From contig CANRCV010000005.1 of assembly GCA_947629205.1 (NCBI GenBank), forward strand, positions 24,193 through 56,192: 32,000 nucleotides of DNA, given 5' to 3'. The first letter of the stretch is position 1. The number at the start of each line of letters is the position of its first letter. Source of the DNA: an uncultured Bacilli bacterium (GTDB lineage: Bacteria; Bacillota_I; Bacilli_A; RF39; UBA660). The position numbers were made by a program, and so were the translations under genes. A model generated the notes under the pieces. It had not been told where the DNA came from and did not search any database. It saw only the letters and a program-made list of their open reading frames with translations. This document shows positions 1 to 19,522 of the stretch, in pieces.

Positions 1-228
1 ATGTGTAATAATCAAAATAACAACACAGAAAATACAAGTTGCATTGCTGAAATACTAAATGTTATTTTAGTTCTTCAACAAAATGCTTGTCCAGATAGTT
101 GTTTAGATTCTTGCGACAGACCAATGCTTGGTGGTGGACCAAATTGTCTTATTTGCAATACTAGACCAATAATGCTATATACTTGCTGTGGTAATGGAAC
201 TCCATGCCTTTGTACAGGAACAAGGTAA
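1..228 (+). CDS. CotZ/CotY/ExsY-family spore coat/exosporium protein, N-terminal half (gene interrupted by insertion)
   Basis: The product is Cys-rich and has the family N-terminal layout (SCIAEILNVILVLQ ... CPDSCLDSC ... NTRPIMLY). The ORF stops one codon after the AAGGT core at 222..226. Its C-terminal half is found at 7272..7505. Confidence 0.8.
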   Translation: MCNNQNNNTENTSCIAEILNVILVLQQNACPDSCLDSCDRPMLGGGPNCLICNTRPIMLYTCCGNGTPCLCTGTR

Positions 229-367
229 AATTATAGTTTTTTTAAAATTGCACTTTAACACAATTTAAGTTTTTAATAATAGATAGAATAAAAAGTATAG
301 TGTGAATAATAGCCATAGCTTAAAAAGGGCTATTTTATATTTTATAGAAAGGAATAAGTGTAATTTT

Positions 368-937
368 ATGGAACAAAGAAATTGTATAAAAAAATTAAAA
401 ACATATAATAAGAGAGTATCTTATGGTAAACTATTAGAAAAAAGGATTATATATTTGAATGGTAAGATTGATGATATACTAGCAGGAGATATAATATATC
501 TGCTTTTTAAATTTGATATGGAAAATCATAAAGACATAACAATGTTTATTAATTCTATAGGAGGTTCAGTAAGTAGTGGACTTGCTATATATGATGCTAT
601 GAATTTAATAAAAAGTAATATTGTAACAATCGGTATTGGAAGGTGTACTAGTATGGCGAGTATTTTATTAATTAATGGTACAAAGGGAAAAAGGTGTTTA
701 ATGCCAAATGCAGAGGTTATGATACATGAAATATCTTATCATACTGGTGGGACAATTACTGATATATATGAGTCTTTAGAGCATTCTAAAAAAGTAAATG
801 AAAGGCTTCTTCATATTATAGCCAATAAAACGAAAAAAAGTTTAGGACAAATAAGAAGAGAAATTGAAGGTAAAGATGTATGGATAAATGCAGATATGGC
901 CTTAAAATACGGCTTTGTTGATAAAGTGTTAAGATAA
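368..937 (+). CDS. ClpP-family serine protease paralog
   Basis: The product shows the ClpP pattern RIIYLNGKIDD ... INSIGGSV ... GRCTSMAS (Ser) ... MIHE (His) ... GKDVWINADMALKYGFVD (Asp). The start is uncertain: a GTG at 302 is possible, but the ATG at 368 gives a typical ClpP N-terminal length. Confidence 0.85.
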   Translation: MEQRNCIKKLKTYNKRVSYGKLLEKRIIYLNGKIDDILAGDIIYLLFKFDMENHKDITMFINSIGGSVSSGLAIYDAMNLIKSNIVTIGIGRCTSMASILLINGTKGKRCLMPNAEVMIHEISYHTGGTITDIYESLEHSKKVNERLLHIIANKTKKSLGQIRREIEGKDVWINADMALKYGFVDKVLR

Positions 938-956
938 TACAAGGGAGTGGTAGTAC

Positions 957-1274
957 ATGAAAAATGAAATAAACGATATTATAAAAATGATTGACAAACA
1001 CTTTAAAAAAGTAGTATGGAATTCTGAACCACCAGTTCATGAAACTGATATGAATTTACTAGTATTAGCAACTAAAATAATTGCTATGCGTGATACTATA
1101 GAAACTATTGATATAAAAAAATCAGTAGATAAATTACTTGCAGACATGCAAAAAACATTTCATATGCCTTATTATAGTAATGAAATTCAACAATGGTTAG
1201 ATAAAGACATAATGAGACATTCTTTAATATTAAAAATATATGAGAAGATAGGAGCCCTTCGTTATTACTATTAA
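957..1274 (+). CDS. hypothetical protein, likely co-transcribed with the ClpP paralog
   Basis: A GGGAGTGG ribosome-binding site lies 7 nt upstream of the ATG, and the gap from the clpP-like stop is 19 nt. I recognise no motif in the product. Confidence 0.6.
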   Translation: MKNEINDIIKMIDKHFKKVVWNSEPPVHETDMNLLVLATKIIAMRDTIETIDIKKSVDKLLADMQKTFHMPYYSNEIQQWLDKDIMRHSLILKIYEKIGALRYYY

Positions 1275-1307
1275 AAATTAATTTCTAGGCGAATTTCTTT
1301 CATTTAG

Positions 1308-1329
1308 TATAATTGGGTTATAATTGGGT
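1308..1329. repeat. perfect tandem duplication of TATAATTGGGT (2 x 11 bp)
   Basis: The copies were read directly at 1308..1318 and 1319..1329, in the intergenic region upstream of the XRE gene. Each copy contains a TATAAT hexamer. Confidence 0.6.
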
Positions 1330-1438
1330 TAAAATGTCTGAAAACGTATAAAAATACATAAATTAAGCAAACTTATAGGCGACATACAAATTTCAATTTA
1401 TTTGTCATAATAATCACAAGGAATGTGGTGAGGCTATT

Positions 1439-1675
1439 TTGAATATTTATGATAAGAATACGTTATCTCATTTAGTAAGAAAGAATATTCGTAAGTATCG
1501 TAAAATGAGAGGATATACTATGCAAGAATTAGCAGACAAAACAGGTCTTACACACCAATATATTAGAGATTTAGAATGTTTAAATGTAGATAAAACACCA
1601 ACACTTGAAAGTTTGGGAAAATTTGCAAATGCTTTAGAAATAGACATAAGACAATTATTTGATGATATAGATTAA
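1439..1675 (+). CDS. XRE-family helix-turn-helix transcriptional regulator
   Basis: The product has an HTH_3 pattern (IRKYRKMRGYTMQELADKTGLTHQYIRDLE). The start is TTG, 6 nt after a GGTGAGG ribosome-binding site. Confidence 0.85.
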   Translation: MNIYDKNTLSHLVRKNIRKYRKMRGYTMQELADKTGLTHQYIRDLECLNVDKTPTLESLGKFANALEIDIRQLFDDID

Positions 1676-1679
1676 AATG

Positions 1680-2462
1680 TTATTCAGTAATTGTTAAACT
1701 ATCTAAATAGATATTTTCGTTAGACATTGTAAAAGTAAGCAAATAAGTATTAAATAAATCTTGATTTTTGGTTGCAATTTTATCAAAATCACACTCTAAA
1801 AAATCATAGTAATCATAGGAGCAAAATTCATTTTTTGATAACTTTGTTATGATTGGATTAGTTTGATTTTGAGCATCTTCGATAGTTTTATATAATTCTT
1901 TAGGTTCTTCCCCTGTATCTAAATATGCAGTATACATTCTAGTAAAATAGACTAATACTTTATCTTCTTTTTTTGTGGCTTTGATTACGGTATTATAACT
2001 ATTAAGGTCGCCTACACCATGACCATAAGGAGATTGAACAAAAGATTCGGTTTTAGCATTGTAAGAGTATAGTATATCGTTATCGTAAGGTGAATATAAA
2101 TTTTCCATATCAATAGTAGCATTTTCACCAAAATATTTTTGAGTAATCATTAATAGATTTTCTTTTGTTAATGACAATTTTGAACCATCTCCCATATACT
2201 CATTATTAGATATAATATTGAATATAATTTGTAATTTTTGTTGATTATCTAGGTCATTGAATGAGAAATTTTCTAAACTATATGGAATACTACTCAATAA
2301 TAAATTGATTTTATTTGTTTCGTTATCGCTTAATGTATATTCTTCTTCCACTATTTCGTGAGTTTCATTAGTAGTATCAACGTTATTGTTAGACATTTCT
2401 TTAGTATTACAGCCAGTTAAACAAATAATACAGATAAATAAACTTATAAATTTTTTTAACAT
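1680..2462 (-). CDS. lipoprotein, function unknown
   Basis: The signal peptide has a lipobox (MLKKFISLFICIICLTGC). A GGTGA ribosome-binding site precedes the ATG at 2462. The ORF track starts 4 codons earlier. Confidence 0.75.
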   Translation of the reverse strand: MLKKFISLFICIICLTGCNTKEMSNNNVDTTNETHEIVEEEYTLSDNETNKINLLLSSIPYSLENFSFNDLDNQQKLQIIFNIISNNEYMGDGSKLSLTKENLLMITQKYFGENATIDMENLYSPYDNDILYSYNAKTESFVQSPYGHGVGDLNSYNTVIKATKKEDKVLVYFTRMYTAYLDTGEEPKELYKTIEDAQNQTNPIITKLSKNEFCSYDYYDFLECDFDKIATKNQDLFNTYLLTFTMSNENIYLDSLTITE

Positions 2463-2556
2463 AATTATCACCATTTCCTATTACAATTATTGCATAATTA
2501 TTTTTTAGGAGCAAGGGGAATGATAGTTTAATATGTAAAAAAATGTCGCCTGGCGG

Positions 2557-2585
2557 TTGAAATGCAAAATGGTTTATGCTAAAAT
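2557..2585 (+). promoter_or_regulatory. sigma-A-type promoter candidate for the membrane-protein genes
   Basis: TTGAAA (2557..2562), a 17-nt spacer, then TAAAAT (2580..2585). Confidence 0.4.
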
Positions 2586-2613
2586 CTTTATAAGAAGGAA
2601 GTGAGAAAATAAT

Positions 2614-2967
2614 ATGGCGTTAATTAAATGTAGCGAATGTGGAAACGAGATAAGTGATGAGGCGGCAATATGCCCTCAGTGTGGACATGATTTGTATTCT
2701 AATCAAAAAGTGAATGATGATGAAAGTAAAAAAGGTACGTATGGTTTAGTGGGAATGATATTAGGATTGTGTTCGATTATAGCATGGATTATTCCTCTTT
2801 TTGGATATCCATGTACGATTGTTGGAATTGTATTTAGTGCAAAAGGTTTAGAATCAAAAAATAAAAATAAAGCAATAACAGGATTAGTTTTATGTATTAT
2901 ATTTTTAATATTTACTTTAATTAATTCTATAGTTGGTGCTGCAATAAGCACTGAAGGTTATTATTAA
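2614..2967 (+). CDS. zinc-ribbon protein with DUF4190-like transmembrane region
   Basis: The N-terminus has a CxxC...CxxC ribbon (CSECGNEISDEAAICPQCG), followed by two hydrophobic helices of the DUF4190 type. Confidence 0.75.
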   Translation: MALIKCSECGNEISDEAAICPQCGHDLYSNQKVNDDESKKGTYGLVGMILGLCSIIAWIIPLFGYPCTIVGIVFSAKGLESKNKNKAITGLVLCIIFLIFTLINSIVGAAISTEGYY

Positions 2968-2985
2968 CAAAAGGAGTGAAAAAAT

Positions 2986-3246
2986 ATGAAAGAAAATAAT
3001 AAAGGATTAGCAATCGCGGGACTTGTAATTAGTATCGTTAGTATATTTATATTTCCAATACTTGGTATTTTGTCAATTATTTTTGGAGCGATTGTAATTA
3101 ATACTAATGAAAATAAAGAACCATGGTTTAAACCAGTTTGGAAATATAAAAATAAGACTTTAGGATATGGTAGATATTCTTTATTAGTTGGAATTATTGA
3201 TATTGTATGGGTTGTAATCAATTATTTTATTTTAATGGCAATGTAA
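2986..3246 (+). CDS. small DUF4190-like membrane protein
   Basis: A GGAGTGA ribosome-binding site is present. The hydrophobic core GLAIAGLVISIVSIFIFPILGILSIIFGAIV is typical of the family. Confidence 0.7.
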   Translation: MKENNKGLAIAGLVISIVSIFIFPILGILSIIFGAIVINTNENKEPWFKPVWKYKNKTLGYGRYSLLVGIIDIVWVVINYFILMAM

Positions 3247-3324
3247 TTTTTAGTTTATCTAAATATTAGTTTATTAAATATTTGAAAATATAACAAATAA
3301 AAGGATTTTTAGAGGAAAAAATTT

Positions 3325-3771
3325 ATGAAAAAAGGAATAATTGCATTAGTTATAGTTTTATCTATAATTACTATTGGAATAGTGGTATTTTATAAATCCC
3401 AAAATAGTTATCTTGGTTCTTATGTTTCAGAAAATGGTTCTATAATAGTTTTAAAAGAAAATGGAAAATGTGAGATTACAGTTGTAAATACAGTAGTATA
3501 TACCAATAGTAATACTTGTACTACTGGGAAATGTTCTCAACTTGTAGGTGGTTCAAATTATCACCCTGGTCTTCCAAGTAATTATGTTTCTAAACGTAAT
3601 GAAACTAGTAAAGCAACTAGTTGTACTTATGAGTTTTATAAAGATTATATATTACTTACTCATAATATTGATTATGTTCAAACCAATAAATATAACTTTT
3701 CCGAACATTATAAATATCTAACATGGGAAGGGCAAGGAAAATTATATAAAAAAGACAATACTAAAAAATAG
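3325..3771 (+). CDS. membrane-anchored or secreted hypothetical protein
   Basis: An N-terminal TM/signal segment (MKKGIIALVIVLSIITIGIVVF) is present, and a GAGGAAAA ribosome-binding site lies upstream. Confidence 0.65.
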   Translation: MKKGIIALVIVLSIITIGIVVFYKSQNSYLGSYVSENGSIIVLKENGKCEITVVNTVVYTNSNTCTTGKCSQLVGGSNYHPGLPSNYVSKRNETSKATSCTYEFYKDYILLTHNIDYVQTNKYNFSEHYKYLTWEGQGKLYKKDNTKK

Positions 3772-3807
3772 TATAATTATTTGAGATACCATTATATTTA
3801 ACGTTAA

Positions 3808-3844
3808 AAAGATATAAAAATAAAGATTTTATATCTTTTTTTTT
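3808..3844 (+). terminator. intrinsic terminator
   Basis: A perfect 12-bp stem (aaagatataaaa / ttttatatcttt) with a 7-nt loop is followed by a T-run. Confidence 0.7.
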
Positions 3845-4187
3845 ACAAAAAATTATGTATTGCTAAAAGTTAGCCATAGTAAAACCATATAATGTAATAG
3901 AGAGCTTAAAAGAAAAATTAAAAATGTTTTAAATATTTAATGAAATAAGCTTTAATGATGATTAAAAAATGTAAAAAAAGTGTCAAAAAATGTCGATTTT
4001 TCAAAAAAAATAAACATTTTGTAATTAGAAAATATAAAAGTACGCTTTTCGAACCATATAGTTATAATAGGACAAGGATGAAATTGTCTTTAACTATTCA
4101 TAAAAGCAAAAATATCTTTTGTGAATATATAGGAGGTGATATACATGTAATCGTGAAGATACCCAAGGATAACAAGGAATAACTCAA

Positions 4188-5090
4188 TAAGCTAAGACTA
4201 CTCATTTGTAATCATAGTGAGGTGGAATGCGTCCTTGCGATGTCCTATACCCCAGCAACTTAGATGACAAAAATAGAAATAAGGTACATTTGATTTTGGT
4301 ACTACTTGCATAAGCGAAACGCAGACAACACAGATGCCAAGACTTAATACTGTTTACCAGTAGTGGAACCCGAAGCTTCAGAGGACTGCACTTGTGAAGC
4401 ACCTAGTAGGAGCCCTGTTAGTAGAAAACTAATAATACTTACTAGAGTACCAAGTAGTGGGCGGAAACACCAGCTCCCAGATACCGTGTCGTGGCGTTGA
4501 CGGTGGAGAGTGCAGGGATAAAGAACCATAGACGACAAAAAATATTACTATAATGAAGACTTATTAAAATTCTTATTAGACTATTTCCATTTATTCCGCT
4601 ATTTCCATTTATTAGTAGACTTCCATTTCTATTTTGAGGAAGATTTAAAATTTGAAGAGGAGATAGCAAAAAAGGAAGAGGAGATAGCACAAATTAATTT
4701 TATTAAGCTAATAGAATGTTAAAACTATTAGCACCAGTTGTGGGGGGATAAAGTAATAGCACCCCTACTAGGGTACAGTTTAACTTTAGATTATTTATTT
4801 ACATAGCAACTCAAAGCGATTTATCGGATTGTAGCACACATTATTTAATTTATAAGCTAATAGCATGCTAAAACTATTAGCACCGGCAGTAATATAATCT
4901 TATAGTCATTCTTGACTTGAGATACTGAGGTACAGTTGAGCAATAGTAATTATCTTTATAAGTTGATAGAATGCTAAAACTATCAACACCAGCAGTAGTA
5001 AAGTCAAGCAAACATAACTGTCTTGACATACTGGGGTACAGTTCAGCTAAAGTTTATTAAACAGGAGAGTGGATACTCCTAAGAATAAAC
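4188..5090 (+). ncRNA. large structured RNA candidate, class unassigned (GOLLD/ROOL-like in size and context)
   Basis: The block has no credible ORF and is much richer in G+C than its flanks (4190..4545). It contains many local helices. A long helix with U-G pairs works only on the + strand. Three tandem modules show stem covariation. A hairpin (gtttatt/aataaac) closes the block at 5052..5090. Confidence 0.5.
4704..5043 (+). repeat. three tandem structured modules (4704..4780, 4853..4937, 4959..5043)
   Basis: Each module starts TAAGYT. It then has an 8-bp hairpin with the conserved loop AATGYTAAAA or CATGCTAAAA, followed by CACC(A/G)G, a variable long hairpin (CAGTA...TACTG) and a terminal GGTACAGTT. 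Confidence 0.7.
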
Positions 5091-5513
5091 ATATCCAAAC
5101 AATTTGATTCATTAATTATATTGAATCACTAACTATAGTTGCTAAATCTTATGATAATTTGATTAAGAATATTCTAAATTTATTTCCATGGAATAGATTA
5201 TTCTTATATCATAAAGTGACTATTAAATTATTTAACTTTAAACAATAAAAAATTTACTAACAGTACAACAGGATACTCTAGTAAAATTAAATTGTTTGAT
5301 AGTTTATATTATGATAGACATAGACCAGTTGTGTAGAAATGTATACAGCTATGCAACTGGTAGTATCTATCATTAATTTTATTAAATGTACAAAATATAA
5401 ATTTGAATCTAAAAAGCAAAAATAAATTATAAATCCGCAAAAAATAAAAAATAAAAATCATAAAAGTGATTTTTGCTTTACACATTCAATAAAATTAAAT
5501 AGGAGATGAGGAT

Positions 5514-5630
5514 ATGTTAATAAAAAATTACTACTGTGTGAACGGTAAAACGTTCCAAGAGATTATGGAAGAATTCTTTATTCAATACTGTAATAGAAAA
5601 ATAAATACGGATATTGTGAAATATGCTTAA
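5514..5630 (+). CDS. small ORF (38 aa) immediately upstream of the recombinase gene
   Basis: An AGGAGATGAGG ribosome-binding site precedes the ATG. The product is MLIKNYYCVNGKTFQEIMEEFFIQYCNRKINTDIVKYA. I recognise no family. Confidence 0.35.
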   Translation: MLIKNYYCVNGKTFQEIMEEFFIQYCNRKINTDIVKYA

Positions 5631-5680
5631 AAACGTTATAATAGTAATTGTTAAAGTGCAATTATCTATGAGGAGGTATA

Positions 5681-7234
5681 ATGAGAGATAATAGCATATT
5701 TAATGTAGGTCTGTACTTGCGTTTATCTAGGGAAGATGAAAATACAATTGAAAGTGAAAGTATTAGCCATCAAAGACTTTTATTAGAAGATTATGTCAAA
5801 GTCAATCGTTTTAATCTAGTTGATGAATATGTTGATGATGGATATACTGGAACAAATTTCACTAGACCAGATTTTAATCGTTTAATTAGAGATATCGAGG
5901 CTGGTAAAATTAATTGTGTAATTACTAAAGATATGTCTAGATTAGGTAGAGATTATATCTCTACAGGTTGGTATTTAGAAAAATACTTTCCTGAGCATAA
6001 TGTCCGCTTTATATCAATAAATGATAACATTGATACTATTACTGGACAATTAGATGATGTAGCACCTTTTAAAGCCGTAATCAATGATTATTATGCTAAA
6101 GATATATCAAATAAAGTTAGAACATCTATTACCGCTATGAAAAAACGAGGAAAATTTCTTGGAGGTATTCCACCATATGGTTATAAGTTTGCAAGTGAAA
6201 AAAATCACCAACAATTAGTTATTGATGAGGTAGTTGCTCCAGTAGTTCGTAGAATGTTTCAAATGTATGCTAATGGAAAAAGCCTTTATGAAATAGCAGA
6301 TACTTTTAATCAAGAAAAAATTCCCATTCCAAGCATCTATAAAAACATAAAACGTAAAAAATCAGAGGCTTATGGTTTATGGCAAACAAGAACTATTGAT
6401 GAAATTCTAAAAAATCCTACATATATAGGTAATTTAACCCAAGGTAGAAGAAGAAAAGTTAACTATAAAAGTAAAAAAATTGTTAGACTACCTAAAGAAG
6501 AATGGATTGTTGTAGAAAATACTCATAAACCAATTATTGACAAAGAAACTTTTGATAAAGTTCAAAGCATTTATGAAAAGAATAAAAATAGAAAATGTAC
6601 TAAAAACAATGTTCTATTTGGAGGCTTTTTATATTGTAAAGAATGTGGACATAAAATCGGTATAAATAAGACACATGAAAAATATTACTGTTGTTGTAAT
6701 TACTACAAAAGATTTTCAAAACAAGGTTTATGTACACCTCATTCTATTCCTTATGATTTATTAGAAAAGGAGTTATTAACAGAAATTCGTAAAGAATGTA
6801 AGAAAAGTGTTCGAGAAGAAAAGTTTCCAGAACTATTAAAAAACAATAACAAGAAAAAACAAGCCATTGATAATATTACCAAATTAATTGCTAAAAAGAA
6901 CTTAGAGATAGAGCAAAATAATAAAGCAGTGGATGATTTATATATTGCTAAATTAAAACAAGAATTAGATAACGACAGGTATAAAAGTATTTATAACAGG
7001 TTAAATGAAGAATTAAATAAATTAAAAAATGAACTACACATTTTAAAAAACGATTACAACAAGTTAGCAAATGAAGAAAACGAAAGTAATCAAATAGCCG
7101 ATATGACAATGATTAAAGAGTTCTTAGAATTAAAAGAACCATCTAGAGAATTAATGGCTAATTTAATAGACAAAATTGTAATTGATGAAGATAAACATAT
7201 TAGTATTTATTACAAAATTAGAAGGTATAGTTAA
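5681..7234 (+). CDS. large serine recombinase (SpoIVCA/TndX-like)
   Basis: The product has a resolvase catalytic domain (GLYLRLSREDE ... DDGYTGTNFTRPDFNRLI ... VITKDMSRLGRD), a recombinase domain, a Cys-rich zinc ribbon (CKECGHKIG...CCCNYY...C) and a long coiled-coil C-terminus. A GAGGAGG ribosome-binding site is present. Confidence 0.95.
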   Translation: MRDNSIFNVGLYLRLSREDENTIESESISHQRLLLEDYVKVNRFNLVDEYVDDGYTGTNFTRPDFNRLIRDIEAGKINCVITKDMSRLGRDYISTGWYLEKYFPEHNVRFISINDNIDTITGQLDDVAPFKAVINDYYAKDISNKVRTSITAMKKRGKFLGGIPPYGYKFASEKNHQQLVIDEVVAPVVRRMFQMYANGKSLYEIADTFNQEKIPIPSIYKNIKRKKSEAYGLWQTRTIDEILKNPTYIGNLTQGRRRKVNYKSKKIVRLPKEEWIVVENTHKPIIDKETFDKVQSIYEKNKNRKCTKNNVLFGGFLYCKECGHKIGINKTHEKYYCCCNYYKRFSKQGLCTPHSIPYDLLEKELLTEIRKECKKSVREEKFPELLKNNNKKKQAIDNITKLIAKKNLEIEQNNKAVDDLYIAKLKQELDNDRYKSIYNRLNEELNKLKNELHILKNDYNKLANEENESNQIADMTMIKEFLELKEPSRELMANLIDKIVIDEDKHISIYYKIRRYS

Positions 7235-7271
7235 GTTAAATGTTTATCTTGTTTAGTAACAAAGGTGGAGT

Positions 7272-7505
7272 ATGCCAACTACAAAAGATTCAACAGCAAC
7301 TTGTAGTGAAGCAAGTACAACTTGTTCTAATGTATTTAGAGTAGAAAAAGTGGATGGAAATTGTTGCACTTGTCGTGTTCTTGCAGATAATCCAGATACC
7401 ACTAGCTTAAATCCATACATTGCTACAAATTCATTTTTTACAATTAGTTTAGATTGCATTTGTGCTATTCGTTGTTTAACCGATACATTTGTAGAATGTG
7501 TATAA
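7272..7505 (+). CDS. CotZ/CotY/ExsY-family protein, C-terminal half (coding frame is open from 7266 after joining)
   Basis: Family C-terminal motifs are present (NVFRVEKVDGNCCTCRVL and FFTISLDCICAIRCL). The frame is continuous with 1..225 if the element is removed. Confidence 0.8.
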   Translation: MPTTKDSTATCSEASTTCSNVFRVEKVDGNCCTCRVLADNPDTTSLNPYIATNSFFTISLDCICAIRCLTDTFVECV

Positions 7506-9639: not shown

Positions 9640-10527
9640 ATGGAAAAAAGAAAGAATTCTTTTATGGGAGAAATAAAAACCGATGTTGATTTAAAGAATT
9701 ATTCAACATTTAAAGTTTCTTGTATTGCTAAATATTTTTGTATTCCTAAAGATGAAGAAGATTTAATTCTTTTATTAAAAAGTTTAAAAAAAATAAATAA
9801 GCGTTATGTTTTATTAGGAAATGGATCGAATGTTTTATTTGCATCTTCTGTATTTGATGGAGTGATTATTTCTTTAGAAAAGTTAAATACACTCGAAATT
9901 CAAGATGACTTTGTTTATGCGGGAGCTGGACTTTCTTTAATTGGTTTTAGTACCTCTTTATCTTTAAAAGGGTATAAAAATTTTGAGTTTTTAACAGGAA
10001 TTCCTGGTAGTGTAGGAGCTTCTGTTTGTATGAATGTGGGAGCCCATCAACAAGAAATTTCATCTCTTCTTTCTAAAGTAAAAGTCTTGACTCACGATTT
10101 TAAAATTCAGTATTATAAACCAGAAGAACTTTCTTTTTCTTATCGAAATTCTTTTTTTAAACAACATAAAGATTTTATTTGTTTAGGAGCTCAGTTTAAA
10201 TTAGAAAAAGGAAATGTAGAAGACATTCAAAAAAGAATACAAGAGTACAAAGAAAGAAGACAAAGAACCCAACCTTTAGAATTTCCATCCGCTGGTAGTG
10301 TATTTCAAAATCCAGAAGGGTATACTAGTGGAAAACTCATTGAACAGTTAGGATTTAAAAAATACAAAGTTGGAGATGCTGAGGTGAGTGAAAAACATGC
10401 CAATTTTATTATTAATCGAGGAAATGCTACCGGGCATGATATAGAAACGTTAATTCAAATGATTCAAAAAGCAGTCAAAAAAGAATATGGAATGGATTTA
10501 AAGTTAGAAATTGAAATTATAAAGTAA
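9640..10527 (+). CDS. murB: UDP-N-acetylenolpyruvoylglucosamine reductase
   Basis: The product has an FAD-binding MurB pattern (LGNGSNVLF, GIPGSVGA) and a C-terminal MurB domain (SAGSVFQNP ... AEVSEKHANFIIN). The start could be 9628 or 9640. Confidence 0.9.
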   Translation: MEKRKNSFMGEIKTDVDLKNYSTFKVSCIAKYFCIPKDEEDLILLLKSLKKINKRYVLLGNGSNVLFASSVFDGVIISLEKLNTLEIQDDFVYAGAGLSLIGFSTSLSLKGYKNFEFLTGIPGSVGASVCMNVGAHQQEISSLLSKVKVLTHDFKIQYYKPEELSFSYRNSFFKQHKDFICLGAQFKLEKGNVEDIQKRIQEYKERRQRTQPLEFPSAGSVFQNPEGYTSGKLIEQLGFKKYKVGDAEVSEKHANFIINRGNATGHDIETLIQMIQKAVKKEYGMDLKLEIEIIK

Positions 10528-10541
10528 GTTAGGTGTTTCGT

Positions 10542-11276
10542 ATGGAATTAAAGCAACAACAATGGAGTAAAGATAAATATCAAGAATATGTAAAATATTT
10601 AGAAAGTTTACAAGATATCTCTTATAAAGAGTTTCATAGTAAATTAACAACTACTAAGTATGAAATTATAGGTATACGTGTTCCTATACAAAGAAAGATA
10701 GCTAAAGAAATTTGTAAAGGAGATGTCTTTTCTTTTTTAAAAGAATGTAAAGAAAACTATTATGAAGAGGTTTTAATCAAAGGTTTTGTAATTGCCCATA
10801 TAAAAGAAAAAGAAGCCTTTTTATCTTATTTTTCTTCTTATCTTCCTCTTATCGATAACTGGGCGATTTGTGATGGTTTTTGTAATTGTTTAGAACTAGT
10901 AAAAGAACATCCAGAAGAATTGTTTACCTATTTTTTATCTCTTTTACAAGCAAAAGAGGTTTTTACGATTCGAGTAGGAATAGTCGTTTTATTAACCTTT
11001 TATATTCAAAAAGAGTATTTAGAAGATATTTTTAAAGCTATAGATCAAATCCAAGTTGATTCTTATTATGTCAATATGGCTATTGCTTGGTTATTGTGTT
11101 CTTGTTTTATTAAATACCGAGAAAAAACTTTACTCTATTTAGAAAAAAGTCACATAAATACATTTACTTTTAACAAAACAATCAGTAAAATAAGAGATAG
11201 TTATTGTGTTTCTTTGGAAGAAAAAGAATTTGTTCAAAGTTTACGCAGAAAGGAGGAAAAACATGAAAAAAAGTAA
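10542..11276 (+). CDS. DNA alkylation repair protein (AlkD-like HEAT-repeat family)
   Basis: The pattern YKEFHSKLTTTKYEIIGIRVPIQRKIAKEI ... DNWAICD is typical of the family. An AGGTG ribosome-binding site precedes the ATG at 10542. Confidence 0.8.
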   Translation: MELKQQQWSKDKYQEYVKYLESLQDISYKEFHSKLTTTKYEIIGIRVPIQRKIAKEICKGDVFSFLKECKENYYEEVLIKGFVIAHIKEKEAFLSYFSSYLPLIDNWAICDGFCNCLELVKEHPEELFTYFLSLLQAKEVFTIRVGIVVLLTFYIQKEYLEDIFKAIDQIQVDSYYVNMAIAWLLCSCFIKYREKTLLYLEKSHINTFTFNKTISKIRDSYCVSLEEKEFVQSLRRKEEKHEKK

Positions 11277-11883
11277 AATACTTTTCATTATTGGTTTATT
11301 GTTTCTTATAACGGGTTGTGGAAAAGAAAGTTTAGGAGAGGTAACAGAGTATGATACAATAACCTATCAAACAACTAATAAAAAGACCAATAATGTGGTA
11401 ATTGAATTAGAACAAGAGAAAAAAATAATCGTAGAGTTGTATCCAGAGGTAGCTCCTATTACGGTGACGAATTTTAAAAAATTAGTACAAAAAGATTTTT
11501 ATAATGATACGATCTTTCATAGAGTAATTAAAGATTTTGTTATTCAAGGAGGAGATGGAACAACTCTTGGAAGAAATACAAATACGATTAAAGGGGAATT
11601 TGCATCGAATGGTGTATCCAATTCTTTAAAACATGAACGAGGGGTTTTATCCATGGCTAGAGCATCTAGTATGGATAGTGCGAGTTCTCAGTTTTTTATC
11701 GTTTTAGAAAATAATCAAACAACACAAGCTTTAGATGGAGAATATGCAGCGTTTGGACGTGTCATTGCTGGTATGTCTGTTGTTGATGAAATTGCTTCTG
11801 TTGTAACAGATCGTAATGATAAACCTCTTAAAGATATAAAAATTAAAAATATGGAATTTGTGAAGGTGATAGAAAATGAATAG
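11263..11883 (+). CDS. cyclophilin-type peptidyl-prolyl isomerase, lipoprotein
   Basis: A lipobox (LFLITGC) and the cyclophilin core (FHRVIKDFVIQGGD ... SQFFIV) are present. An AGGAGG ribosome-binding site lies at 11251. Confidence 0.9.
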   Translation: MKKSKILFIIGLLFLITGCGKESLGEVTEYDTITYQTTNKKTNNVVIELEQEKKIIVELYPEVAPITVTNFKKLVQKDFYNDTIFHRVIKDFVIQGGDGTTLGRNTNTIKGEFASNGVSNSLKHERGVLSMARASSMDSASSQFFIVLENNQTTQALDGEYAAFGRVIAGMSVVDEIASVVTDRNDKPLKDIKIKNMEFVKVIENE

Positions 11884-15341: not shown

Positions 15342-16637
15342 ATGAATTCTTATAAAAAAGTACGATTATGCATATTACTAACCAGTATATTGCTTCCTAT
15401 TTTTTTTGTTGGTATTGTCATTGGTTTTCATAGTCATGAACTTATTTTAAAACCAATTCATTATATTTTCTTTATCCTCTTTTTTCTTTCTTTAACTTTA
15501 TTTGATGTAGGAATTATTTTAATTTTAAAAAAAAGAGTTCAAAAAAAAGAAAGTGATCGTTTCAGTATTGTTAAAAAAATTATACTTTCTATTTTTCTAT
15601 CTTTAGAAATTTTAGGAGCAACTACTTTTTTATTTTTAATGTATGGACCAATAAAAAGTTTTCGTGAATTTTTAATTTCTTCGGCGATGACTACGATGTC
15701 TCATCGTTATTTAGCTACTTGGTTTTATAGTGAAAAGGAAATTCAAAAAGTATTAGAGGAAAATAAAATTATTGAAATTGAAGAAGAAACAGATCCAGCT
15801 TTAATTGAATTTCGTAAAAATTTTAATCGTGATGAGTATGAAAATGAATATGAAAGAGAAATCTTTACTTTAGAAGATATCAATGCTCCTTATAAAATTA
15901 TTCCTATAGTAGGAAAAAATTATGAAGGATATATGGCAGTCGTGTATGATCCAGCCAGAGTAACGGTTGGAGTTACAAAGTATTTAAATCGATATGGCCA
16001 ATATGTTACGGAAATGGCTTCACAAGAAAATGCACTATTAGGAGTCAATGGGGGAGGTTTTTCCGATCCTAATAAAGTAGGAACAGGAGGAACACCAGAA
16101 GGCATTTTAATTAAAGATGGAAAAGTATTAGCAGATAAAAGTTTTTCTCGTTCTGGTGGTTTGATTGGTATTACGAATGATAATAAATTAATTTTAGGTA
16201 AAATGACAAGTAAAGAGGCTATAAATAGAGGAGTACGTGATGCGGTAACCTTTGGACCATTCTTAATTGTAAATGGTAAAAGATCCTTTATTAAAGGAAA
16301 TGGAGGATGGGGAAATGCTCCAAGAACAGCGATAGGACAAAGACAAGATGGTATTATTTTACTTTTAGTATTGGATGGGAGAAAAGCAACTGTTCCAGGA
16401 GCTACTATGTTAGATTTAACGAATGTAATGGCTAATTATGGTGCTTATAATGCAGCAAACTTAGATGGTGGTACATCAACTGTTATGGTTTTACCAGCGG
16501 AAGAGGCTAGTAAATATATTACAGAAAAGGAAATGAAGAGTCACTGTTTAAAGAACTATTGTTATATTAATGATATTGTCAATGGTAGTGGTGCTCATGT
16601 AACCAGACCAGTTGTAAGTTCTATTATTGTCAAATAA
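15342..16637 (+). CDS. phosphodiester glycosidase family (DUF2233/NAGPA-like) membrane protein
   Basis: N-terminal TM helices are followed by the motifs GVNGGGF ... PRTAIGQRQDG ... LVLDGR ... ANLDGGTST. Confidence 0.85.
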   Translation: MNSYKKVRLCILLTSILLPIFFVGIVIGFHSHELILKPIHYIFFILFFLSLTLFDVGIILILKKRVQKKESDRFSIVKKIILSIFLSLEILGATTFLFLMYGPIKSFREFLISSAMTTMSHRYLATWFYSEKEIQKVLEENKIIEIEEETDPALIEFRKNFNRDEYENEYEREIFTLEDINAPYKIIPIVGKNYEGYMAVVYDPARVTVGVTKYLNRYGQYVTEMASQENALLGVNGGGFSDPNKVGTGGTPEGILIKDGKVLADKSFSRSGGLIGITNDNKLILGKMTSKEAINRGVRDAVTFGPFLIVNGKRSFIKGNGGWGNAPRTAIGQRQDGIILLLVLDGRKATVPGATMLDLTNVMANYGAYNAANLDGGTSTVMVLPAEEASKYITEKEMKSHCLKNYCYINDIVNGSGAHVTRPVVSSIIVK

Positions 16638-16656
16638 AGTATTTTATGATAGACTA

Positions 16657-16685
16657 AAGGTGTTTATAAAAAAACACCTTATTTA
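16657..16685 (+). terminator. terminator-like hairpin
   Basis: A perfect 9-bp stem (aaggtgttt/aaacacctt) is present, but the trailing T-run is weak. Confidence 0.5.
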
Positions 16686-16686
16686 T

Positions 16687-16763
16687 GGCCTGTTGGTGAA
16701 GGGGTTTAACACGCCACCCTCTCAAGGTGGTATTCACGGGTTCGAAACCCGTACAGGCTACCA
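16687..16763 (+). tRNA. tRNA-Glu, anticodon CUC, CCA encoded
   Basis: A manual cloverleaf gives acceptor ggcctgt/acaggct (G1-U72), anticodon stem ccacc/ggtgg, loop c-t-CTC-a-a, and T arm acggg-ttcgaaa-cccgt. The sequence is near-colinear with the Bacillus tRNA-Glu sequence as I recall it. Confidence 0.85.
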
Positions 16764-16774
16764 ATGATGTTTAA

Positions 16775-16801
16775 AAATCTCTTGTTAAAAGGGATTTTTT
16801 A
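16775..16801 (+). terminator. intrinsic terminator after the tRNA
   Basis: The stem aaatctctt/aagggattt (one G-U pair) has a gtta loop and is followed by a T-run. Confidence 0.65.
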
Positions 16802-17259
16802 TTGTTTAATATTAGAAAATCAAATTATTTTTACATAGAAGGTGGATACATTTTTATTACACCTTCATAGGATAATAAAAATAGGTTATAAAATTCAAAA
16901 AAAGGTTAATTTAAGTTAGGAAATCCCGAATGGAAATCCCGTTTTAGAAAATAAAAGGAAAATGTATTAAATTTTATTGACAATAGGAACCCAATGATAT
17001 GATTTATACGGCTTGCAAACAGCCAATATAATAAGCCGTTTGCTAATAAGCCTATCATATCATTGCCTATAATCAATAAAATTGGTTTAAAAATAATTAA
17101 GAAAAACACTTTCGGGATATCCTAATTTAAATTTATACTTATTCGGGATTTCATTATTTTAATTAACAAAAATTCAAAAAAAGTAGAACTTTTTAATCCT
17201 CTATAGTATAATGAAATTGGGTGTATAGAAGAGGGATAAAAACGAAACAGGAGGTAAAT

Positions 17260-17757
17260 ATGGAAAAGGGAATTTTTGATGCGCGAGAATTAGCAAATTA
17301 TATAATTCAATATAGTAATACGAAATTTAAACAAGAAATTTCTCCTTTAAAATTACAAAAAGCATTGTATTTTTGTTTTGCTTACTGGGGAGGTTTTATG
17401 CATAATAGTAATTCTGTTCATTCTCATAAAGAAATTGATTTAGATTATAATGAATTTTTATTTGGAAATAAAATTGAAGCTTGGGTTTATGGACCTGTCA
17501 TACCAGATGTGTATCATGAAGAACATTTAGAATCTTTTAAAAAAGAAAATTTATTTAAAAATATGAACTATTTACAAGAATATATTAATAATGTTTTAGA
17601 TGATATTTTACTTGTTAACGATTTTAAACTAGTAGAAATTTCTCATGAAGATGAGTGTTGGAAAAAACACTTTAAAAAGAATCATTTTTTTCATAATATA
17701 GAAATACCAAAAGAGGATATTATTAAGGAATATGCCAAAAATATCAGTAACAGCTAG
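17260..17757 (+). CDS. Panacea/SocA (DUF4065) domain protein, candidate antitoxin
   Basis: The product has LKLQKALYFCFAYWGG ... AWVYGPVIPDVYHE. An AGGAGGTAAAT ribosome-binding site precedes the ATG at 17260. Confidence 0.8.
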   Translation: MEKGIFDARELANYIIQYSNTKFKQEISPLKLQKALYFCFAYWGGFMHNSNSVHSHKEIDLDYNEFLFGNKIEAWVYGPVIPDVYHEEHLESFKKENLFKNMNYLQEYINNVLDDILLVNDFKLVEISHEDECWKKHFKKNHFFHNIEIPKEDIIKEYAKNISNS

Positions 17758-18307
17758 AAAAAATCGTTTTGGAAATTATACTGATGAAACACATGAATAT
17801 GAAAATTTTACTTTTGAAGGTTCACTAAAATCATTTCAAGATGATTTGCTTTTTTTTACTAATTTTGTAAAGACGAAAAATAATCAAAGTTATTTATTAG
17901 TGGAAAAATATTTAAAGGATTGTAATCAAAAAAATTTTTCATTTTTAAAAAAAGATTTTTCACCACTTTTGGATATCAAATATACAGAACCTGCTGCCAA
18001 AAGACTTTTAGAAATCATGAATAAGGGTTATAATCATAATTTTAAACCGAAAGATTTACAACAAATATTTGAATTAAAACATAAGAATCAAGAAAAATTT
18101 CGTATTTTTATTTTTAATCATCATCAAATGTTACAAGTTATTTTAATTGATTTTTTTCATTTAGGTATAAATGCTGATAAAATTATTAATGGGCATAGAA
18201 AGAAAATTCATTTAAAAGATGCATATAACAAAGTAAAAGACAATCATTTTGATTTACAAGAATTAAGTTATTTAATTCCTAATCAATCTATGATAGAATA
18301 CCAATAG
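17732..18307 (+). CDS. hypothetical protein overlapping the DUF4065 gene by 26 nt (candidate toxin partner)
   Basis: This is a long ORF with host-like composition. The only in-frame ATG near its 5-prime end is 17732. The segment IFELKHKNQEKFRIFIFNHHQMLQVILIDFFH loosely resembles the RelE/ParE-type core motif. Confidence 0.6.
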   Translation: MPKISVTARKNRFGNYTDETHEYENFTFEGSLKSFQDDLLFFTNFVKTKNNQSYLLVEKYLKDCNQKNFSFLKKDFSPLLDIKYTEPAAKRLLEIMNKGYNHNFKPKDLQQIFELKHKNQEKFRIFIFNHHQMLQVILIDFFHLGINADKIINGHRKKIHLKDAYNKVKDNHFDLQELSYLIPNQSMIEYQ

Positions 18308-18316
18308 GTGAAGCAT

Positions 18317-19522
18317 ATGAAAAAGCATAAAAAAGTTATTGTAGGAATTCTTGTCTTTTGTGCTTTTTTATTGCTTACTTTTTTATTTATTTTTCTAGTA
18401 AACTTTAATTTAAAATTTTCTCTTATTGGAAATGACAAAATAGAATTAAACTATCAAAGTGAATATGAAGAATATGGTGTAGAAGCAAGTATTTTTAAAA
18501 AAGATATAACGGATAAAGTTAAAATAACCAATTTAATTCAAAATCAAGAATTAGGAACTTATCAAGTTGAATATAAATTAAATATTCTTGGTGTTTCTCA
18601 TACTTTGATTCGAATGGTCCAAATTGTTGATTATGAAAAACCTCAAATTACTTTAAAAGGTAAAGAAGAAATCACTTTAGTAGTAGGAGATGAATATCAA
18701 GAAGAAGGGGCAAGTGCTTTTGATAATGTTGATGGAGATATAAGTACGAAAATAGAAATTGAAAATCAAGTGGATACAAAAAAAGTTGGTGAATATCAAG
18801 TAATTTATAAAGTAAAAGATTCTTCGAATAATGAAAGTGTTGTTACTCGAAAAGTACTTGTTACTAAAAAAACACAAAATATTGATATTCATAATCCTAT
18901 GGTTAAATACATTGTTGATCATCATTATGATATTAGTTTTGGCTATTATAATTTAAAAACTAAAAAAAGTTATTTTTATAATGAAAATAAAGTATATTTT
19001 GCTGCTAGTTTAATTAAAATTGTAGAGACTTTATACTTATATGATCATGATATGGTAAATGCAGATACAAAACCATATATAGAAAAGATTATTACGCGTA
19101 GTGATAATCCCTCTCATCATTATTTACAAGCTTTAATTGGTCAAGATAATTTAAAAAAGTATGGTGCTAGTTTAGGAGCTAAGTATGTTTTATCTGGTGG
19201 TGGGGTTTGTGGAAATACAACCGTAAATGATGAAATGATTTTTTTAAAAAGATTATATGAAATTACCAAAGATGGTCAAAATGAAGAATTAAAATCATGG
19301 TTTATTAATGATTATGGAAATCATTTGACTTTTGATCCTTCTATTCCCGTTATGCATAAGTATGGGCTTTATAATCAAGTTTATCATGATATTGGAATTG
19401 TTTTAGATGATGATACACCTTATCTCGTAGTTATTTTAACAGGGATTCCAGATGGATACGCTCCCATAGTAGAAGAGTTATCTAAGATTATTTATGAATA
19501 TCATACAAGCTTAAAAAATTAA
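18317..19522 (+). CDS. membrane-anchored class A beta-lactamase-like serine hydrolase with Ig-like (DUF5011-type) domain
   Basis: It has a TM anchor and the Ig-like pattern GASAFDNVDGDIS...VGEYQVIYKVKDSSNN. Active-site motifs are SxxK (ASLIK), SDN (RSDNP) and a KTG-like KYG. Confidence 0.75.
   Translation: MKKHKKVIVGILVFCAFLLLTFLFIFLVNFNLKFSLIGNDKIELNYQSEYEEYGVEASIFKKDITDKVKITNLIQNQELGTYQVEYKLNILGVSHTLIRMVQIVDYEKPQITLKGKEEITLVVGDEYQEEGASAFDNVDGDISTKIEIENQVDTKKVGEYQVIYKVKDSSNNESVVTRKVLVTKKTQNIDIHNPMVKYIVDHHYDISFGYYNLKTKKSYFYNENKVYFAASLIKIVETLYLYDHDMVNADTKPYIEKIITRSDNPSHHYLQALIGQDNLKKYGASLGAKYVLSGGGVCGNTTVNDEMIFLKRLYEITKDGQNEELKSWFINDYGNHLTFDPSIPVMHKYGLYNQVYHDIGIVLDDDTPYLVVILTGIPDGYAPIVEELSKIIYEYHTSLKN

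Follow-up and report, generated by a model that had tools for sequence, protein, structure and literature searches.

A split cotZ-family gene around a large serine recombinase element

In a 32,000-nt stretch of DNA from an uncultured Bacilli bacterium (lineage RF39, UBA660; assembly GCA_947629205.1, contig CANRCV010000005.1, positions 24,193 to 56,192 of the forward strand; hereafter, the window), a gene of the CotZ spore coat family is split by an element of about 7 kb that carries a gene for a large serine recombinase (LSR). On its + strand the window begins with an open reading frame (ORF) of 75 amino acids (aa) at 1..228 (MCNN...CCGNGTPCLCTGTR), and an ORF of 77 aa (MPTTKD...FVECV) is found at 7272..7505. 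Exactly these two fragments are recorded as separate gene products of the NCBI source contig. The initial annotation of this DNA took them for the halves of one CotZ-type gene, which was confirmed by comparison with the Pfam family PF10612 (Spore-coat_CotZ). Each half matched this family separately, the N-terminal one at profile positions 3-64 with 24.8 bits, and the C-terminal one up to profile position 159 with 27.5 bits. The 147-aa protein rebuilt from both halves, as described below, gave one continuous PF10612 match, covering positions 3-159 of the 159-position profile with 52.6 bits, against a cut-off of 24. No NCBIfam model matched the rebuilt protein, and a sequence search for a solved relative gave none. 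It is its match to PF10612 that places the protein in the CotZ/CotY/ExsY family.

The recombinase encoded in the element was confirmed as an LSR by its domain set. The catalytic domain matched PF00239 at residues 11-158 with 75.6 bits, and the protein also matched PF07508 (99.2 bits) and PF13408 (36.5 bits). The catalytic Ser16 in the RLSRED motif was invariant in sets of 18 and 19 relatives, and the zinc-ribbon cysteines C319, C322, C339 and C351 were invariant in relatives as well. In an AlphaFold2 model of moderate overall quality (predicted local distance difference test score, pLDDT, of 67.9), beta strands at 317-339 were followed by long helices at 391-425 and 431-463 (pLDDT 84-91), which are predicted to form the coiled coil expected of serine integrases. 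The closest solved relatives were the catalytic domain of TnpX (2mhc, 117.6 bits) and full-length SprA of SPbeta (52.8 bits). Judged by its sequence, the protein has all the hallmarks of an LSR.

An identical copy of the LSR was found in an NCBI contig of 56,267 bp, and relatives with 54-71% identity were found in ENA and Logan assemblies. In profile scans, the identity of relatives did not exceed 45% in IMG/VR, 50% in the metagenome collection and 53% in the genome collection; members of the close clade were seen solely in ENA, Logan and NCBI contigs that were reached via exact-protein look-up.

Position of the crossover site

The only bases common to the left junction, the right junction and the intact alleles of the gene are the dinucleotide TG, located at 205..206 on the left (attL) and at 7266..7267 on the right (attR). 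The left junction reads ...ACTCCA TG CCTTTG... and the right junction reads ...CAAAGG TG GAGTATGCC.... When the two sides are joined at TG, the DNA reads GGA ACT CCA TGG AGT ATG CCA, which is translated as G T P W S M P, and the product has 147 aa. The split then falls between the codons of Pro68 and Trp69. The intact alleles L001 and L002 read CCT TGG AGT/AGC ATG CC at this place, and intact homologue proteins read ...CCGNGTP-WSMPTTKD... across the junction. In the integrated state, the 5ʹ cotZ frame continues for 21 nt inside the element and ends at the stop codon 226..228.

Recombination of attL with attR at TG is predicted to give GGAACTCCA-TG-GAGTATGCC in the gene (predicted attB, GGTAATGGAACTCCATGGAGTATGCCAACTAC) and to remove a unit of 7,061 bp, in which the reconstructed attP reads ...TTTAGTAACAAAGG-TG-CCTTTGTACAGGAAC... 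(predicted attP, TTTAGTAACAAAGGTGCCTTTGTACAGGAAC). The two element arms of attP are symmetric about the TG: as an inverted repeat they matched at 20 of 30 positions, compared with 8.9 +/- 2.6 for random window pairs (P about 6e-5). The TG at both junctions together with the symmetric arms corresponds to short att sites of the serine-integrase type, with imperfect inverted symmetry about a crossover of two non-palindromic bases. A hidden Markov model (HMM) built from 120 intact homologues gave 283.7 bits for the 147-aa protein. The element is almost certainly bounded by this TG, with precise in-frame restoration of the 147-aa protein. The proposal that site-specific excision of the recombinase element restores one colinear ORF is supported in silico, both in its architecture and in the class of the element.

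A different junction had been proposed in the initial annotation, namely recombination between direct repeats of AAGGT at 222..226 and 7262..7266, which would remove 7,040 bp, leave a junction reading ...GGAACAAGGTGGAGT... and give a 154-aa protein. Both copies of AAGGT are present and their join is in frame, but the resulting protein contains seven extra residues, CLCTGTR, that were absent from 14 of 14 aligned intact homologues, and an insertion at the junction was seen in none of the 120 best homologue matches. The 154-aa sequence also scored lower with the HMM (266.3 bits). It did match PF10612 with 49.4 bits, but its best stretch ended at profile position 109. The uninterrupted alleles sought as a check exist (L001 and L002), but their junction fits TG and not AAGGT. 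The arms are poorly symmetric about the pentamer (11/30), its left copy sits inside the Pʹ arm, and the repeat is missing from the eight other cotZ elements described below, all of which have TG. Moreover, strand exchange by serine recombinases takes place at a central overlap of 2 bp. There are 39 copies of AAGGT on the + strand of the window, so we regard the pair as a chance match. A crossover there is extremely improbable. The true crossover on the left side is 21 bp further to the left, and the stop codon, which had been ascribed to the first element bases past the core, sits wholly within the element.

Table 1. Features of the split cotZ-family locus and of its element, in window coordinates.
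Feature	Position	Strand	Remarks
5ʹ part of the CotZ-family gene	1..206	+	Codons 1-68 (...CCGNGTP) plus TG of the Trp69 codon
Left element arm, Pʹ half of attP	207..236	+	CCTTTGTACAGGAACAAGGTAAAATTATAG
Left-end motif	246..260	+	AATTGCACTTTAACA; 41 nt inside the left junction; reverse complement of the leader motif
ClpP-like serine protease	302..937	+	PF00574, 169 bits; also PHROG head-maturation protease families; ATG 368 is a possible alternative start
105-aa protein	957..1274	+	No family match
XRE/HTH_3 transcription regulator	1439..1675	+	
Putative lipoprotein, 264 aa	1680..2474	-	No family above cut-off
Three small membrane/secreted proteins	2614..3771	+	Zinc-ribbon membrane protein 2614..2967; others 2986..3246 and 3325..3771
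ORF-poor stretch	about 3800-5500		Contains a G+C island and tandem modules within 4185..5060
38-aa ORF directly upstream of the LSR gene	5514..5630	+	Candidate recombination directionality factor
Sigma-A-like promoter of the LSR gene	5614..5642	+	TTGTGA-17-TATAAT; best sigma-70-type match of the region, 10/12
Recombinase leader motif	5649..5663	+	TGTTAAAGTGCAATT; between -10 box and ribosome-binding site; complementary to 246..260
Large serine recombinase, 517 aa	5681..7234	+	Resolvase, Recombinase and Zn_ribbon_recom domains
Right element arm, P half of attP	7236..7265	+	TTAAATGTTTATCTTGTTTAGTAACAAAGG
3ʹ part of the CotZ-family gene	7266..7505	+	Trp69 to stop; annotated 77-aa ORF begins at an internal Met, 7272
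Terminator-like hairpin after the cotZ stop codon	7504..7521	+	

Nine elements at the same cotZ codon

All relatives of the LSR with readable context (P0122, P0129, P0130, P0131, P0135, P0137, P0140, and that of locus L009, which came from the genome collection and is 48% identical to the window LSR) were found to sit in split cotZ genes. Together with the window, nine such elements were compared (L003, L005, L009, L087, L089, L091, L255 and L256 being the others), with sizes ranging from 2,537 to 9,100 bp. In all nine, the N-terminal match ends at residue 68, the C-terminal match begins at Trp69 and both junctions have TG; after rebuilding, the frame reads LYTCCGNG(T/I)PW(S/C/T)MP, and every gene half has an intact reading frame. 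The arms of most of these elements share AAAGTGATAAA / TTTATCACTTT at about +/-13-24 nt from the crossover. Their chromosomal contexts differ. Two of them, of 2.5 kb and 3.0 kb, contain almost nothing besides the recombinase unit.

Some cargo of the sister elements was also located. A RelB/YafQ pair and a Fic gene lie between the LSR gene and the right end (L255:11652-12238; L256:11575-12288), so the LSR gene is not always the last gene of the element. A reverse transcriptase gene (RVT_1) is present at L087:3552-4838. The contig of L087 has, in addition to its cotZ element, a second LSR of 537 aa on the - strand at 16250-19036, with a 31-aa ORF upstream and lying directly upstream of a LysM gene; one genome may therefore carry at least two such elements.

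Intact members of the CotZ family were numerous. A homologue search with the 154-aa query of the initial annotation found 1,367 proteins, all of which had PF10612 and essentially all of which were 142-157 aa long; the best intact homologues were 88-92% identical to the query. A COG-based survey of complete genomes stated CotY and CotZ to be absent outside Bacillaceae-type bacilli (bioRxiv 10.1101/2022.02.25.481979). The family appears to be wider than that survey saw, because more than 1,300 of the PF10612 proteins came from uncultured assemblies (the few named records being labelled 'Bacilli bacterium') and the related recombinase loci were labelled Bacilli, Tenericutes or Erysipelotrichaceae.

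The small ORF and the promoter of the recombinase gene

The 38-aa ORF reported directly upstream of the LSR gene was found again at its place, and ORFs of 34-38 aa were present across the elements, with the consensus MNINxYYNENGKTFQEIMEEFLI.... The protein is conserved, and the DNA varies. Six copies were used to build an HMM, with which every stop-to-stop ORF of 254 loci and of the window was compared. Of its 35 matches at E<=1e-3, all lay upstream of an LSR start (-7 to 100 nt) and on its strand; there were no matches at other places. The LSRs paired with these matches were 42-100% identical to the query. The small ORF had no match in Pfam, PHROGs or NCBIfam. Its position and conservation make it a candidate for the directionality factor of the LSR.

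The sigma-A-like promoter predicted for the LSR gene is likewise present, and its position is kept in related elements: L003 has TTGAAA-17-TACAAT, and the -10 boxes of L087, L091, L255 and L256 are found in the same place. Such a promoter is compatible with known systems that use the directionality factor, rather than the integrase, as their developmental switch.

Complementarity between the left end and the recombinase leader

A motif near the left end of the element is the exact reverse complement of a motif in the leader of the LSR gene (Table 1). Complementarity of 12-17 nt between these two places was found in seven of the nine cotZ elements (the window, L003, L009, L087, L091, L255 and L256) and was absent from L005 and L089. 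For L255 and L256 it had been predicted before their sequences were fetched, and both proved to have it, the exact matches being 15 and 13 nt long. The sequence itself differs between elements (TGTTAAAGTGCAA vs GTYAATATRTGTKTT), with both copies changing together. Analysis of the seven elements with RNAalifold gave a 12-bp helix in which six pairs had two-sided changes and 83 of 84 cells were paired. In a control, 98.8% of the cells were paired, compared with 88.5 +/- 2.0% after shuffling (0/500) and 21-55% when the partner was slid. Because a single split between two sequence types accounts for most of the two-sided changes, the independent covariation events are few. A third version of the complementarity was found in a related element that splits spoIVA (L053, described below), with TTCACTTTATTAGTT near the left end and AACTAATAAAGTGAA just after the -10 box.

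Either of two readings would fit this complementarity. It may reflect RNA pairing, in which the leader of the LSR pairs with RNA made by read-through from the host promoter or with the 3ʹ end of the LSR mRNA after circularisation. Alternatively, the two motifs may be inverted operator copies for one DNA-binding protein.

Related recombinases at other genes

Relatives of the LSR with 36-47% identity were found directly upstream of recurring 3ʹ gene fragments. In L053, spoIVA is split into a part for residues 1-122 at 1071..1436 and the remainder from 11635, about 10.2 kb apart. The LSR of this locus (10001-11548) is 40% identical to that of the window, and the spoIVA case was seen also in L050, L054 and L055. 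The spoIVA junction reads TPW|YDE, again at a TGG codon, and GTGATACC is present in inverted orientation in the two arms. A 3ʹ fragment of dpaA/spoVFA begins right after the LSR stop codon in L201, L204 and L235 (NCBIfam PRK08306, 139 bits, profile positions 179-291 of 297), suggesting an element that splits dpaA, which is known from this 3ʹ part alone. The spoIVA gene encodes an essential ATPase of coat morphogenesis, and spoIVA and dpaA must both be intact for a viable spore.

The C-terminus of an FtsW/RodA/SpoVE-family protein directly follows LSR relatives in L212, L241, L246, L247 and L249, and LysM-domain genes directly follow them in a cluster of 27 loci including L038-L043, L051, L052 and L056. 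Further fragments found after LSR relatives were a short Cys/His-rich one with no family match (HVCPxxTRIINHH...; L012, L027, L029 and L197) and one reading TPSLNKSFKFQSxWP (L028, L036 and L060).

Proposed excision during sporulation and its alternatives

Position 1 of the window is the cotZ ATG, so that the promoter of this copy falls before the start of the window. In five of eight related loci (L001, L002, L005, L009 and L089), a sigma-K consensus, AC-N16/17-CATAnnnTA, was found 54-57 nt upstream of the cotZ start; in the remaining three, AATA replaces CATA at the same position. The consensus used was that of B. subtilis, and a shuffle control gave about 0.1 strict matches per 27 regions. 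In B. subtilis, cotY and cotZ are sigma-K-dependent crust genes. The longer N-termini of some CotZ proteins in databases ('MRIHERVND...') turned out to be translated cotZ 5ʹ leader.

Read from its sequence, the locus has the features expected of an LSR intervening element in a mother-cell gene, with insertion inside the coding sequence, a recombinase of its own and, in silico, restoration of the ORF by precise excision; the small ORF is its candidate directionality factor. New in it are the target gene, the host lineage and the family size, and its class of mechanism is a known one (the skin/SPbeta/gin class). We consider it reasonably probable that the 7,061-bp unit is a non-prophage intervening element, inserted by its LSR into a late mother-cell-type coat/crust gene, whose excision is coupled to sporulation. 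In the mechanism that we propose, the LSR would be made from the sigma-A-like promoter, and the 38-aa protein encoded just upstream would act as its directionality factor. This factor would be made in the sporulating mother cell, where, together with the LSR, it would release the element as a circle and restore cotZ, and the rebuilt gene would be expressed from a sigma-K-type promoter. The chromosome of the forespore would retain the element, hence its inheritance. The conserved complementarity between the left end and the LSR leader is a candidate timing signal for excision.

That the element is excised during sporulation is what we infer from indirect evidence, namely the sigma-K-type promoter of cotZ homologues, the one site shared by nine elements, the small ORF conserved before the LSR gene, and the LSR relatives that interrupt spoIVA and abut a 3ʹ dpaA fragment. 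A number of observations weigh against it. Neither the 147-aa nor the 154-aa version of the rebuilt protein was present among 15 billion proteins in an exact look-up. Contigs from three other metagenome assemblies, 99.9-100% identical over the LSR gene and attR, were all in the integrated state; an assembly artefact is ruled out by this agreement. An exact 29-mer of the right half-site had no match in metagenome contigs, with neither attB nor attR of this allele found there, and no attB or attP form of the window element was found in the protein and metagenome collections searched. In 27 non-identical related elements, the region before the small ORF contained strict sigma-K, sigma-E and sigma-A patterns in no case (0 of 27), and a relaxed, sigma-E-like pattern (ATA-N16-18-CATA) occurred in 7 of them against an expected 2.5 +/- 1.5, a marginal excess given that six tests were made. 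Because TnpX, the closest solved relative, excises without a directionality factor, the small ORF may be dispensable. The host, being uncultured, appears to be a spore former only from the gene content of itself and its relatives. Speaking for sporulation, genes for Peptidase_M23 and Peptidase_M50 in related contigs lie just upstream of rplU, which we take to be the position of spoIVFA-spoIVFB in B. subtilis, and the contigs also carry a CtpB-like protease, a Hydrolase_2 (SleB-type) gene and GerAC with a spore germination permease.

Other points against the proposal concern the mobility of the LSR unit. Among seven elements compared, LSR identity (48-73%) and CotZ identity (60-77%) were uncorrelated (rho 0.12), so the unit looks mobile rather than strictly co-inherited. 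The cargo of the cotZ elements is unrelated from one to another, comprising a replication-type AAA_25 ATPase, a reverse transcriptase, RelB/YafQ toxin-antitoxin genes, Fic and a block of metabolic genes. LSR relatives also use a non-sporulation gene, encoding a ZIP zinc transporter (L024 and L026). These points would fit an ordinary mobile element of the integrative kind, with a conserved part of cotZ for its attB, that follows its own life cycle of excision and integration (in stress or transfer) and leaves its carriers without a coat protein that is perhaps dispensable in the gut. The sigma-A-like promoter before the LSR gene, the lack of a strict sporulation promoter upstream of the small ORF, and the fact that cotZ homologues are in their vast majority uninterrupted, fit such an element too. 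Lack of co-divergence and variable cargo are equally compatible with a domesticated switch and with a mobile element. Against an ordinary mobile element, the gene halves have stayed intact in nine of nine elements despite the divergence of their LSRs; the minimal elements of 2.5-3.0 kb have no transfer or replication functions; IMG/VR viral contigs contain no close relative, the best being the 45%-identical one; and the LSR family repeatedly abuts or splits mother-cell genes, including spoIVA, whose permanent loss would abolish sporulation. We hold this explanation to be possible and the less probable one.

It is improbable that the insertion is dead, with an element that no longer excises and cotZ fragments that are pseudogene remnants. 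Only integrated copies were recovered for the window strain, and the source record annotates the fragments as two genes; but the LSR ORF is full length with all family-invariant residues kept, the att arms are symmetric and well preserved, neither frameshifts nor stops occur in the gene halves of the window or of the eight other elements, and conservation extends to the small ORF and the leader motif.

Returning to excision coupled to sporulation, we tentatively suggest a wider scheme, which is speculative. The unit of LSR and small ORF may have radiated over mother-cell sporulation genes in uncultured gut Bacillota, splitting cotZ and spoIVA and abutting 3ʹ fragments of dpaA, FtsW/RodA/SpoVE and LysM genes, and each element might be timed by the promoter of the gene that it interrupts. 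Read-through RNA from the left end would pair with the LSR leader next to the ribosome-binding site, switching LSR expression and excision when the host gene is needed.

Comparison with known systems

To our knowledge, gene-rebuilding excision has been reported for a handful of targets, sigK, spoVFB, spoVR, spsM, gerE and yabG, all in cultured Bacillus, Geobacillus and Clostridium/Clostridioides. The initial annotation knew of no cotZ-family target, and in the searchable literature we also found no paper reporting cotZ or spoIVA as an interrupted gene. By function, the window locus would be grouped with skin, SPbeta/spsM, vfbin, vrin, gin and yin, and it seems closest to gin as a small, non-viral element and to SPbeta in the order of small gene and integrase gene.

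Like the window element, gin of gerE in Bacillus cereus ATCC 10987 is not a prophage and is inserted in a small mother-cell sporulation gene, whose ORF is rebuilt by an LSR (GirC) and a very small partner protein (GirX). GirX, the directionality factor of gin, has 42 aa (PMC5595907), and the likeness of the 38-aa ORF of the window to it is one of size. The two differ in that the target in the window is a cotZ-family structural gene and not a transcription factor, that the host is an uncultured gut Bacillota, and that the window element has one recombinase and gin has three; excision of gin is known, whereas that of the window element is predicted.

The SPbeta/spsM system, with SprA and SprB, has the same layout, with the small gene immediately upstream of the integrase gene (PMC4191935, PMC5499854, PMC6957869). 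Its site-specific recombination (SSR) unit is arranged as attL-rdf-int-attR, and sprB, not the integrase gene, is developmentally regulated (PMC6957869). This regulation fits the sigma-A-like promoter of the LSR gene in the window element, and both targets are spore-surface genes. SPbeta, however, is an active phage of 134 kb, whereas the window element has 7 kb and no virion genes, and its similarity to SprA is distant. The same logic as we propose, LSR excision in the terminally differentiated mother cell with the element kept in the germ line, applies to skin of sigK (SpoIVCA and Skr) and to skinCd of Clostridioides difficile (PMC5025042). Compared with skin, the target in the window is a structural coat gene rather than a sigma factor, no sigma-E-type promoter was identified, and the element is much smaller.

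TnpX of Tn4451 from Clostridium perfringens belongs to the same clostridial-type LSR subgroup, and its excision gives a circle. Tn4451 is a transposon with a loose choice of targets at GA dinucleotides. The cotZ elements, in contrast, are strictly site-specific at TG in one codon and have a conserved small partner ORF. The yin element of yabG in Clostridium botulinum is an LSR element in a sigma-K-dependent coat-related gene and has a putative small directionality factor (PMC10747680); it differs in being prophage-like and known from a single strain, whereas the cotZ elements have at least nine diverged members.

The present locus adds a structural coat/crust gene to the targets, in an uncultured gut lineage and as a family rather than as a single case. 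The nine elements and their relatives at spoIVA and dpaA suggest that such rearrangements may be far commoner in gut spore-formers than culture work shows. Sporulation genes split in this way in metagenome-assembled genomes will be miscounted as missing genes or pseudogenes in estimates of sporulation capacity. The elements also represent compact, naturally diversified sets of integrase, att sites and small partner with defined sites, which are of interest for genome engineering.

Cargo of the element and the rest of the window

The G+C content is 28% for the window and 24% for the element. Between the left end and the small ORF, the element carries the genes listed in Table 1, followed by the ORF-poor stretch. 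A prophage was considered as its origin and rejected: matches to PHROGs were limited to the ClpP-like protease, the HTH repressor-type protein and the integrase, no virion, packaging or lysis genes were found, and the IMG/VR viral contigs held no close relative of the LSR, as noted above.

Within the ORF-poor stretch, an island of 40-44% G+C devoid of ORFs is located at 4185-4545. A structured RNA was considered for this island and rejected, since Rfam gave no match, either at its gathering threshold or at E<=1, and the folding z-scores of -1.2 and -1.0 were not significant. The region 4100..5100 showed no similarity to 50,697 phage records at the DNA level or to the fetched loci. Three tandem modules of 105-150 nt start at 4697, 4846 and 4952 and extend to 5060, each consisting of AAGCTAATAGMATGYTAAAACTATTAGCACCRG, a variable hairpin-like part and then ACTGRGGTACAGTT. 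The remaining part of the window is ordinary chromosome, including dinB with a yolD-like gene, murB, gltX (whose glutamyl-tRNA synthetase was 82% identical to its nearest relatives), nrdDG and tyrS, among others.

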